From contig JBHYGA010000004.1 of assembly GCA_051859245.1 (NCBI GenBank), positions 867,930 to 931,929 on the forward strand: a DNA stretch of 64,000 nucleotides, written 5' to 3'. The position numbers and the translations under genes are program-made. This DNA is from Gemmatimonadaceae bacterium (GTDB taxonomy: Bacteria; Gemmatimonadota; Gemmatimonadetes; Gemmatimonadales; Gemmatimonadaceae). How positions within the stretch are numbered: position 1 is the first letter of the stretch; each line of letters opens with the position of its first letter. Under the pieces are notes generated by a model. That model did not search any database and was not told the origin of the DNA. It was given only the letters and a program-made list of their open reading frames with translations. Positions 19,635-28,690 of the stretch are shown here, piece by piece.

Positions 19635-20634
19635 CTAGCGCGTGGCGCGCAGGATACGATCCCGCACGCCGTCCCACGCCGCACCACTGGGGGGCAGCTG
19701 AATCACGATCAGGGTGCAGCCCTCATTATCGAGCGTGTGCAGCGCGGCGTAGAGTCCGCGTGCGTAGCCGGCCGGCGTGGCCGGCAGATGCAGCGTGCGG
19801 TGCGCGCCGGAGAGGCCAATACCGCCGTCGAGGGCCAGCACACCAACGCGTGCCGAGGCACCTGCATCAATCGCGCGCTGAACTTCCGGCAGGTCGTCGA
19901 CGCCGGTGAGCCAGACATCGGCGCGCGGTGCGTAGTGCCGGGTGGCGCTCCCGGGTGAACGCTGCGGCGCGGCGTGCTCCAGTGTGTGGTCGAGCGCGTG
20001 GGAGCGCATGAGCACGCGCTCGCCGAGCAGGTGCGACAGCGTGTCTGCGCTGAGCTGGCCCGGCCGAAGAATCACGGCCTCGTCACCTGTCACATCCACC
20101 ACCGTGCTCTCAATGCCGATTTCGCACGGACCACCATCAAGAATCATCAGCTACGCGATCGCCAAGACCCATGGCCACGTGTTCGGCTGTCGTGGGTGAA
20201 AGCTGCGTGAATCGGTTCGCGCTTGGCGCCGCAATCGGAACAGCTGCGGCTCTTAATAGCGACAGTGCGTCGTTGTGCGCCGGAATGCGAATGGCCACGG
20301 TGTCGCCCCCGGCGCTCACAATGTCCGGAATGGCATCGCTTTTGGGCAACACTAACGTGAGCGGCCCCGGCCAGCACGCCTCGGCCAAGCGAGCCGCGCG
20401 CTCGGGCCAGGAGCGTGTGAGCGCCTTGGCCGCAGCAACGTCTGCCACATGCACGATCACCGGGTTCCACGCCGGTCGGCCCTTCGCGGCGTAGATGCGG
20501 GCCACGGCGTCGGCGTCGAGCGCGTTCGCACCTAGACCGTAGACCGTCTCAGTGGGAAACGCGACCAGTTCGCCGCGGCGAATCAACGCGGCGGCCTGCG
20601 CCAGCGATTCTGGAGTAACGGCAACGATAGCGAT
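19635..20634 (-). pseudogene. sua5: Sua5-type threonylcarbamoyl-AMP synthase (YrdC + SUA5 domains) interrupted by a one-base frameshift at about 20148; pseudogene or sequencing error
   Basis: ORF 20137-20586 has FPTETVYGLGA, KGRP, WPGPLT and APSAN; ORF 19635-20147 continues ILDGG..GIESTVVD, LRPG, SPG...HYAP, LYAALH. Confidence 0.85.
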
Positions 20635-27188: not shown

Positions 27189-27397
27189 GGTCTGTTCACG
27201 AGTAGGGAAATCTCTGACGGGGGAATGCTGACGAGCAAATCCCGACAATCGCGACGTCGTGTCGCGACCACTGGCGCATTCACGCCGAAGGCCACATGGT
27301 GCTATACGTGCGCGTCCCACGTCAACCGGGGAGACCGTACCGATGGCCTCCCACGCGCGCCCCACGCGATCGGCATCTCCATGCCGGGAGGCCCGCC

Positions 27398-28690
27398 ATG
27401 CCCGCGATAATTACCGCGCTGCCGCAGGAACTCGTCGCTGCATTTCGAAGCGGCGACGAACACGCGTTCGAACAACTGGTGCACTCGCGTTTCGATACAC
27501 TCGTTGACAAGGCACAACAACAGCTTGGTACCGACTCGGGCGCTGCACCACGCGTCGCAATGAGTGTGCTGCTGAGTGCGTGGACTGATCGTGCGCAGTT
27601 TGCAACGCCGATGTCGCTCGACGATTACCTCGATGAATCACTGCCGCATCGCTGTGCCGACGAGCTGCGTCGTCGCGCCGCGTTACACCGGTTTGAAGTG
27701 CACGAAGGCGTGCAGGTGACCGCACCGCCTGCGAAGCAGGGAATGTCTGCCGCGCAGGCGTGGGATGCCATTGCCACGCGTTTGCATGTGTCCGACGCCG
27801 AACGGGAAGAGCATCGCGAAGAATCGCGTGTGCTCGCCAAGCGACACGCTCGTGAGCACGTGAACAGTGTCGCCGGACAGAGGCTGTCGATGGGCATGAT
27901 TATCACCGGCGTCGTGTTGCTGATTGCCGTGGTGGTGGCCATGCGGTTCATGGATCGCGGCAGCGCCGAGCTGGCGCTCACGCGCGCACTCGAAGCGGAA
28001 GACGTGCGCGTGATGCGCGCGGCACCTGGTCAGCGCGGTACCATCACGCTGCTCGATGAAAGCACAGCACAGCTGGCCGCCGGCAGCACGATGCGAGTGC
28101 CGCGCGGATTCGGCAACGACATTCGCGGACTCTCGCTGGATGGTGCCGCGCATTTTGTGGTGGCACCGGGCAAGTCGCCAAACTTTGAAGTGCGTGCCTA
28201 CAACACGTCCATCGTTGCCACCGGCACGGCGTTTACCGTGCGCGCATACGACGATGAACCGGACGTGCTGGTGACCGTGCGTGAAGGCACGGTGCGTGTC
28301 ACCGCTGGCGCATCCGAGACACGCACGCTGAAAGCGGGCGAAAGCGTGGCGATTGCGCGCGATGGCAGTATGCGCACACCGGCGCCGGCCGAGCTGCCGC
28401 TCGCATTCTCGTGGGTAGACGGCGAACTGGTGCTTGAGAACGTGTCGGTTTCGCAGGCGCTCACGCAGCTCAGGCGCTGGCACAACGTCGACGCGCAACT
28501 GGGTCACGATTCGCTCGGCACGCGCGTGGTGAGTGCGCGATTGACACTTGAATCCGCTGGCGAAGCGCTTGATGCACTCAGTCGCGCGGCGAACCTGCAG
28601 GTGACGTACGACGGTCAGCAAATGGTGTTGCGAGACGCGACGTTGCCAAACGCCGCGCCTGCCAAAACTACAAACCGCCCAACGCCTTAG
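27398..28690 (+). CDS. FecR-family protein with N-terminal ECF sigma region-2-like domain
   Basis: GGGAGG RBS; one TM helix (MGMIITGVVLLIAVVVAM); FecR motifs GQRGTITLLDES, LSLDGAAHF, GTAFTV, VREGTV, SWVDGEL; N-terminus LVAAFRSGDEHAFEQLV. Confidence 0.85.
   Translation: MPAIITALPQELVAAFRSGDEHAFEQLVHSRFDTLVDKAQQQLGTDSGAAPRVAMSVLLSAWTDRAQFATPMSLDDYLDESLPHRCADELRRRAALHRFEVHEGVQVTAPPAKQGMSAAQAWDAIATRLHVSDAEREEHREESRVLAKRHAREHVNSVAGQRLSMGMIITGVVLLIAVVVAMRFMDRGSAELALTRALEAEDVRVMRAAPGQRGTITLLDESTAQLAAGSTMRVPRGFGNDIRGLSLDGAAHFVVAPGKSPNFEVRAYNTSIVATGTAFTVRAYDDEPDVLVTVREGTVRVTAGASETRTLKAGESVAIARDGSMRTPAPAELPLAFSWVDGELVLENVSVSQALTQLRRWHNVDAQLGHDSLGTRVVSARLTLESAGEALDALSRAANLQVTYDGQQMVLRDATLPNAAPAKTTNRPTP

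Follow-up and report, generated by a model that had tools for sequence, protein, structure and literature searches.

A conserved protein family of Gemmatimonadaceae that joins a degenerate sigma2 domain and a putative anti-sigma helix to a FecR-type periplasmic region

Introduction

Several described systems lie close to the protein reported here; statements on them that carry a PMC number hold for the excerpts of those papers on which they are based. FecI-FecR-FecA signalling, with the ECF239-243 clade, is the source of both halves of the protein (PMC7826278, PMC7186176), although the family lacks helices 1-3 of the anti-sigma domain (ASD), a cognate ECF sigma factor and a signalling receptor. 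The nearest relative in build is IutY of Pseudomonas putida, in which a complete sigma factor is fused to a FecR domain and which is processed by Prc and RseP (PMC5411451). This ECF243 hybrid shares with the family a sigma-derived cytoplasmic part, a single transmembrane (TM) helix and a FecR-type periplasmic domain in one polypeptide (PMC5411451, PMC8999054). As described in these excerpts, however, IutY frees a working sigma factor of ~23 kDa and adjoins the receptor gene iutA, and the family does neither; in contrast to IutY it has no sigma4, an inverted DAED motif, an internal helix 4 and no receptor.

PhyR resembles the family in its sigma-derived fold, whose polymerase and promoter contacts are degenerate and which stays hidden in the same polypeptide until a signal arrives; unlike the family it is soluble, combines a receiver domain with a complete ECF-like fold and usually shows linkage to nepR-ecfG (PMC8103513). 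Compared with PhyR, the family has sigma2 only, its cap is predicted to be a true anti-sigma helix and its input domain is periplasmic. EcfP (ECF43) also misses the DAED motif, but keeps sigma4 and a phosphorylatable Thr and adjoins a kinase, whereas the family mostly has Pro/Ala followed by Arg (PMC8999054). In SigO-RsoA (YvrI-YvrHa) of Bacillus subtilis one polypeptide is sigma2 only, as in the family; RsoA acts in transcription with a linked sigma4 protein (PMC8103513), and none was found for the family. The acids of DAED bind the basic beta' clamp helices, and EcfP, which is without them, is inactive until phosphorylated (PMC8999054, PMC8103513). Class I anti-sigmas contact sigma regions 2.1/2.2, where beta' also binds, through helix 4, as solved pairs show, and sigma4 through helix 1 (PMC7406223).

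Here we describe a gene in a window of 64,000 nucleotides of a Gemmatimonadaceae genome (contig JBHYGA010000004.1), which a sequence-only reading had taken for an orphan fusion of half an ECF sigma factor to a FecR anti-sigma. The family to which it belongs is built like IutY, is a member of neither the IutY nor the PhyR type and likely works like PhyR. The earlier suggestion of an undescribed system apparently stands: full-text searches of mainly non-subscription literature gave no description of the family.

Results

Gene and domain layout

The gene is a single open frame on the plus strand (27398-28690) that encodes 430 aa (P0001); with opposite-strand genes on both sides it is apparently monocistronic. 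It had been credited with a ribosome-binding site of its own, and a Shine-Dalgarno GGAGG (27387-27391, +) indeed stands 6 nt ahead of the ATG, in agreement with the homologous starts. In most of 41 homologous loci a purine-rich site also precedes the matching start, as judged by eye. A promoter and terminator scan found none, and upstream k-mers were only weakly enriched. Elsewhere in the window, a gene on the minus strand (19635-20586), which from its motifs we take to be Sua5/TsaC-like, falls into two frames that overlap near 20140, which points to a frameshift, a sequence error or a pseudogene.

One TM helix at about aa 163-181 (27884-27940, +) was placed by hydropathy (KD peak) and was seen in 99 of 100 members. 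A periplasmic FecR domain (PF04773, aa 206-300; 28013-28297, +) and an STN-like FecR_C domain (PF16344, aa 344-409; 28427-28624, +) follow, both above the Pfam cut-off and supported by fold matches; the full model matched the periplasmic domains of PupR and BDI_1681 with E-values of 2e-19 to 2e-15. The single TM helix with periplasmic FecR and FecR_C domains is the build of a FecR-type protein, and the cognate ECF and the TonB receptor with a signalling domain that belong to this type were missing. Core and structural residues of the periplasmic part are common to canonical FecRs, and the Gly-Thr self-cleavage motif is relaxed (Thr in 67% versus 95% in canonical FecRs). The residues D210, R231, F251, V253 and W301 of the IutY off-state, as far as the excerpts give them, appear to correspond to the conserved D220, R243, F263, V265 and W339 of the family by spacing, not by alignment.

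A sigma2-derived domain that has lost its contact residues

Residues 8-103 (27419-27706, +) form an ECF sigma2-derived domain that spans regions 1.2-2.4, as indicated by ECF-model matches, predicted fold and profile-profile alignment. ECF models, TIGR02985 among them, matched residues 10-101 with E-values of 1.5e-6 to 4e-5, far under the model cut-offs, and the sigma2 of P0001 falls below the Pfam cut-off. Comparison of aa 4-92 with 29 FecI-type ECFs from Gemmatimonadaceae by hhalign gave a probability of 99% and an E-value of 3.6e-18, which bore out the region-2-like N-terminus seen by the sequence-only reading. The predicted N-terminal model (pLDDT 88) agreed, since its fold matched ECF sigma2 domains (VIA Z 10.8, rmsd 3.1, 94 aligned) and sigma factors filled the best 14 rows of the comparison. 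With the same model Foldseek returned sigma2 domains on top, with no E-value below 0.001, and an Atlas search with aa 1-160 gave leads that were all under 0.9. The nearest ECFs to the domain are FecR-linked.

RNR/N residues of region 2.3-2.4 read the -10 element in ECF sigma factors. In the family this R-N-R..N pattern was lost, with Asn84 in 1 of 100 members. At the DAED position of related ECFs the profile-profile alignment placed A49-A50-P51-R52, just as had been claimed; the stretch AAPRVAMS (aa 49-56; 27542-27565, +; family consensus xAPRVVEx) occupies the place of DAED..QD, with the polymerase-binding acids lost and an Arg gained. Column by column, A-E-E-v-v-Q-D of the related ECFs became A-P/A-R-V-V-E-x. 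Position 51 was acidic in 0 of 100 members (mostly Pro/Ala), position 52 was R/K in 87 and Q55 was present in 5, against 100% Glu, 93% Glu and 100% Gln in the same columns of related ECFs. The acidic DAED..Q motif for beta' binding is thus missing. Ser/Thr at position 51, the phospho-position of EcfP, was found in 16 of 100 members, and the ECF43 combination of Ser/Thr at DAED, a neighbouring kinase and sigma4 was not seen. Degenerate polymerase and DNA contacts of the PhyR kind occur, for the sigma2 half only; the receiver domain and the nepR-ecfG linkage of PhyR do not.

Region 4 had been reported absent, and it is: the sigma4 HMM matched nothing in 100 full-length members (best E-value 0.03, in the periplasmic part), sigma4 was missing from all 52 shorter family matches examined, hhalign of aa 105-160 against the C-half of ECFs gave a probability of 1.4%, and the structure model held no HTH. 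The family therefore shows neither a sigma4 within 50 aa of sigma2, an ECF criterion in the part of PMC7826278 used here, nor the complete sigma2 plus sigma4 on a TM-FecR that marks the IutY type. The place of sigma4 and of ASD helices 1-3 is taken by a flexible Ala/Gly/His-rich linker (aa 104-116; 27707-27745, +).

We estimated dN/dS on the 11 pairs from the 41 loci that exceed 62% identity; as the pairs are not independent and pS goes up to 0.68, the values are rough. They ranged from 0.06 to 0.30 for the sigma2 part, from 0.12 to 0.34 for the 58 aa after it and from 0.08 to 0.51 for the periplasmic part. We concluded that the sigma2 domain is under purifying selection and, as judged from the alignments, is without polymerase- and promoter-binding residues. 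The alternative of a degenerated sigma-antisigma fusion, raised by the earlier reading, thus fits the origin of the protein and not its present state.

Family, distribution and origin

The first search found 45 proteins, ~38 of which aligned over at least 95% of their length with 27-100% identity. A profile of the 160-aa cytoplasmic part found 193 representatives at E <=1e-10 among 1.84 billion; 99 of the 150 matches listed were 395-445 aa long, and the shorter ones (n=52 examined) were fragments. The 100 full-length members analysed here (395-445 aa) are mostly representatives at 50% identity. Named relatives are records from Gemmatimonadaceae, Gemmatimonas and Gemmatirosa labelled FecR protein or hypothetical.

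Among 401 genomes of the phylum, with nine candidates scored per genome, 49 near-full-domain matches of at least 83 bits were found in 48 genomes, so that the noted fusion of a sigma2 half to FecR proved to be a real, conserved family. Beyond the source genome, 47 of 94 Gemmatimonadaceae genomes carried the fusion, mostly in single copy, and none of 306 outside the family did. Twelve of 14 same-genus genomes were carriers, the other two being 89% and 64% complete. One copy (L135; G281:C16:147000-152000) has a stop and apparent deletions and is the sole broken one among the 49. Another genome holds two copies on separate short contigs (G285:C185 and G285:C160), a duplication or an assembly duplicate.

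In a quick tree (midpoint-drawn, 35 of the 100 members) the periplasmic domains of the fusions formed one branch apart from 40 canonical rows with an SH-aLRT of 99; the only row within this branch labelled canonical, P0042, is a truncated member. Tandem ECF-fecR-receptor loci of Bacteroidota match the protein at each of its two ends. The family probably arose once, from a tandem ECF-fecR pair that lost sigma4 and ASD helices 1-3; one internal deletion would have taken this binding pair and spared the other, sigma2 and helix 4. We looked among 20 weaker matches for a family form with sigma2, sigma4 and FecR intact and rejected it, since 19 read as separate sigma4-bearing ECFs and the remaining one is a broken family copy. 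Full sigma-FecR fusions with sigma4 form separate clusters of Pseudomonadota.

A helix that matches anti-sigma helix 4

The sequence-only reading had listed AQAWDAIATRL next to one TM helix and had missed its likeness to an anti-sigma helix. The single TM helix held; the direct adjacency did not, as ~35 residues with a His-rich helix lie between. Moreover, the stretch belongs to a helix (aa 117-130, xDEAWxxVxxxLH; 27746-27787, +) in which W122 is kept in 94% of members. It matches the helix that closes the cytoplasmic part of canonical FecRs and reads DVxxAW or DVEAAL there. The name ASD helix 4 for the matched FecR helix rests on its position. Among 15 FecRs that are partners of the nearest ECFs, a PSSM of aa 117-130 fell in register on this helix in 11, with a mean of 9.0 bits against -1.2 for 19 ECF post-sigma2 regions. 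In a second FecR set it was in register in 16 of 27 (mean 3.5 versus 0.1); the best score lay elsewhere in 4 of the 15 and 11 of the 27. A four-helix anti-sigma domain is not present, as helix 4 alone matches and the rest is sigma2 and a linker of ~17 aa.

We also asked whether the helix could be the remnant of an ECF pre-sigma4 segment, which was rejected because the PSSM favours FecR helix 4. In support of such a remnant, some ECFs close this helix with AALH and the spacing from ALH to SR fits. Stretching the hhalign alignment to aa 148 brought no gain (E 6e-18 versus 3.6e-18), and hhalign without TM anchoring did not separate FecR helix 4 from pre-sigma4 (E 0.03 and 0.04).

A complex of aa 112-160 with aa 1-104 was predicted with a score of 0.77 (best control 0.01). 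Of the solved pairs 116 of 157 attain this mark, and of the mismatched ones 2 of 215, although the run, with its custom alignment and Zn as a ligand, lies outside this calibration. The Zn did not count towards the score, and no contact with it was reported. The runs agreed in at least 81% of contacts with a partner pLDDT of at least 60, and the predicted contacts join aa 21-36 and 51-62 to 115-129. The score may stem from solved sigma/anti-sigma complexes that the predictor had learned. In a shallow covariation analysis of 203 sequences the pair E21-H130 took second place; among the 40 strongest pairs, 7 link aa 21-29 or 59 with 118-130. Taken from these predictions, the protein's own helix 4 would sit in the sigma2.1/2.2 groove, where polymerase would bind.

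Helix-4-like motifs were found behind other ECFs of carrier genomes, also behind ECFs without FecR pairs: of 87 regions, 11 gave at least 5 bits, and their reverse strands, which as non-coding DNA are a weak control, gave 1. Targets for a partner switch therefore exist in principle.

Genomic context

That no ECF sigma factor or TonB-dependent receptor neighbours the gene was borne out across the 64-kb window, which held no ECF, plug domain or signalling-type receptor. No conserved partner gene was found among 41 neighbourhoods of ~13 kb, the biggest neighbour clusters covering 9 of 41 loci and being lineage-bound or promiscuous. No conserved metal-related neighbour and no STN domain was detected in them, and Ser/Thr kinases were absent from the 61 of 463 called neighbour genes on which Pfam was run. 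A TonB receptor was near the fusion at one of 41 loci (L117), by an HMM of low sensitivity (15 ORFs versus 36 plug matches in the source genome). A sigma4-only gene, which the earlier reading had proposed to look for in the neighbourhoods of homologues, was found neither there nor in the source genome, where 28 unpaired sigma4-family matches were, by eye, LuxR-type, transposase or full divergent ECFs.

The source genome has three canonical FecRs, each adjoining one of its three STN-bearing receptors, so none is left for the fusion. In 14 of 48 carriers there is no other FecR: 13 have a single FecR match, verified as the fusion in 5 of 5 cases (one with an extra sub-threshold match), and one has only two fusion copies. 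Fifteen of 48 lack an STN match and hence a signalling-type TonB receptor. The number of STN matches equals that of FecR minus one in 40 of 48 carriers and is at most FecR minus one in 46, whereas it equals FecR in 14 of 20 non-carriers with FecR; most of the genomes are drafts, and related ones do not count as independent. We concluded that the fusion is decoupled from classical cell-surface signalling.

A target that co-occurs specifically with the fusion was not found. One core ECF (G000:C4:403165-403743, L205-L224; at least 70% identity) was tried and is non-discriminating, being present in 73 of 78 genomes; a zinc anti-sigma gene lies 200-470 nt downstream of it at 22 of 22 loci.

Some single observations were made on the same genomes. 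At L096 (7495-9189) a YCII protein and an ECF42-type sigma lie directly downstream of the fusion, an arrangement absent from the other 40 loci. In genus g2 a co-oriented CarboxypepD_reg-domain gene, a possible local partner, follows the fusion (L091:4276-5733 and L092:7234-8736). FecI-type ECFs of Gemmatimonadaceae are opposite in strand to fecR at 27 of 27 loci that contain both genes (L002, L060-L089), in contrast to the common fecIR operon. Two non-carriers of genus g10 (G088 and G183) have at least 54 FecR matches each versus 0-6 in the other 78 genomes. Seven ECFs of the source genome lack DAED (TLxxTxLVHEAY-like), are missed by PF04542 and are probably kinase-activated types (G000:C4:267541, C4:127117, C4:570940, C1:1050887, C5:931987, C5:314706 and C1:550773).

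Discussion

The earlier idea of a one-component trans-envelope signalling protein is supported as far as a trans-envelope protein with a sigma2-derived cytoplasmic domain is concerned. For its action we favour, at a probability of roughly 0.4, a membrane-anchored pseudo-sigma that is capped by its own helix 4, freed by envelope proteolysis and then works as a partner switch. A periplasmic cue would destabilise the FecR domain, and Prc- and RseP-type proteases would free the cytoplasmic part of ~165 aa, as for IutY; the source genome codes for M50 and S41 proteases. Helix 4 would be lifted by trimming or by a ligand at the His cluster, and the open groove would then bind helix 4 from a different class I anti-sigma, whose ECF would be set free, with PhyR/NepR as the model for such a capture. 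Since the polymerase-binding residues are missing, the signal is likely relayed by a swap of partners and not by gene activation of its own. Worded more broadly, the protein could tentatively be seen as a self-capped one-component switch, without TonB receptor or cognate sigma, that once released cross-wires other ECF pathways or acts on a different target, with a His metal site in control. The anti-sigma decoy of the sequence-only reading may hold, provided that it does not depend on FecR partners, as 14 of 48 carriers have no other FecR.

Several points count against the partner switch. A tethered helix 4 would outcompete a free one unless it is actively removed. PhyR uses a sigma2-like plus a sigma4-like half. 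The conserved R88, R92, H97, R98, R148, H149 and H154 are not explained by a decoy role. Finally, FecR domains of Pseudomonas without a receptor partner are unstable (PMC7186176), which together with the relaxed Gly-Thr motif also weighs against the model.

The conserved residues lead to the rival that survives best, possible though doubtful: sigma2 and helix 4 would be a locked scaffold, and the basic/His patch a new output that binds metal, haem, nucleic acid or a non-sigma protein. On this account, held with the same doubt, the protein would be a trans-envelope sensor outside sigma control. R52, E55, R88, R92, H97, R98, W122, H130, R148, H149 and H154 are kept at 70-94% (the source copy has Met55 and His150). 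Leaving out R52, E55 and W122 the range is 70-92%, and of these residues only R98 is common to ECFs. His makes up 6.6% of the cytoplasmic and 0.7% of the periplasmic part, and at least three of the four His sites are kept in 86 of 100 members. A His-rich helix specific to the family by conservation and model (aa 133-158, RHxAAxH; 27794-27871, +) may, in combination with H97 and H130, make up a site for a metal or another ligand. The persistence of the fusion without FecI-type partners would also fit a locked scaffold. However, no model groups the His residues (pLDDT ~78 in that region), the covariation of the 203 sequences showed no clear His cluster, and the 41 neighbourhoods held no conserved metal-related gene.

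It is unlikely that the protein is an anti-sigma with a built-in off switch, whose helix 4 would leave the pseudo-sigma2 and bind the sigma2 of an ECF encoded elsewhere. The helix-4 motif is kept, above all W122, and each of five carriers examined has 17-22 sigma2 genes. Yet the helices 1-3 that bind sigma4 (PMC7406223) are missing, and in four carriers most of the conserved ECF groups come with a downstream anti-sigma-like gene of their own.

Less probable still is that function resides solely in the periplasmic and TM part, with the cytoplasmic unit as a folded remnant that is retained because it adds stability. A sigma2 capped by helix 4 would be stable and inert, and no partner gene was found; but dN/dS of sigma2 was below that of the periplasmic part in 7 of 11 pairs, and many of the new conserved residues are apparently non-structural.

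We regard it as very improbable that the released domain binds RNA polymerase, be it to act as a decoy or to supply sigma2 to a split sigma. The sigma2 fold is intact and split sigmas such as SigO-RsoA exist (PMC8103513). Against the decoy of the sequence-only reading stand the charge inverted at DAED and the loss of Q55 and RNR/N in nearly all members, with a phosphorylatable residue at the EcfP position in just 16 of 100 and helix 4 predicted on the beta' face. Its split-sigma variant found no support either, with no sigma4-only ORF detected in the source genome or in 41 neighbourhoods.

A private deletion or assembly artefact, which the earlier reading had named as a refutation, or a pseudogene can be dismissed given 100 full-length members, 12 of 14 same-genus carriers and no sigma4 in any of the 52 shorter matches.

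If the favoured reading of a partner switch is true, the family would be the first membrane-bound, proteolysis-gated sigma mimic. Pseudo-sigmas are known mainly from PhyR, and the family would be a second, independent case with another input. It points to a simple route to a pseudo-sigma, in which sigma4 and its anti-sigma helices are deleted and sigma2 and helix 4 are kept, and it would offer a natural single-chain model of the sigma2/helix-4 interface. As the ECF classification drops proteins without sigma4 (PMC7826278) and the relatives are labelled FecR or hypothetical, other half-sigma families may be hidden. For the Gemmatimonadaceae themselves, the family indicates that FecR periplasmic domains can persist without a signalling receptor, which implies a possible other cue.
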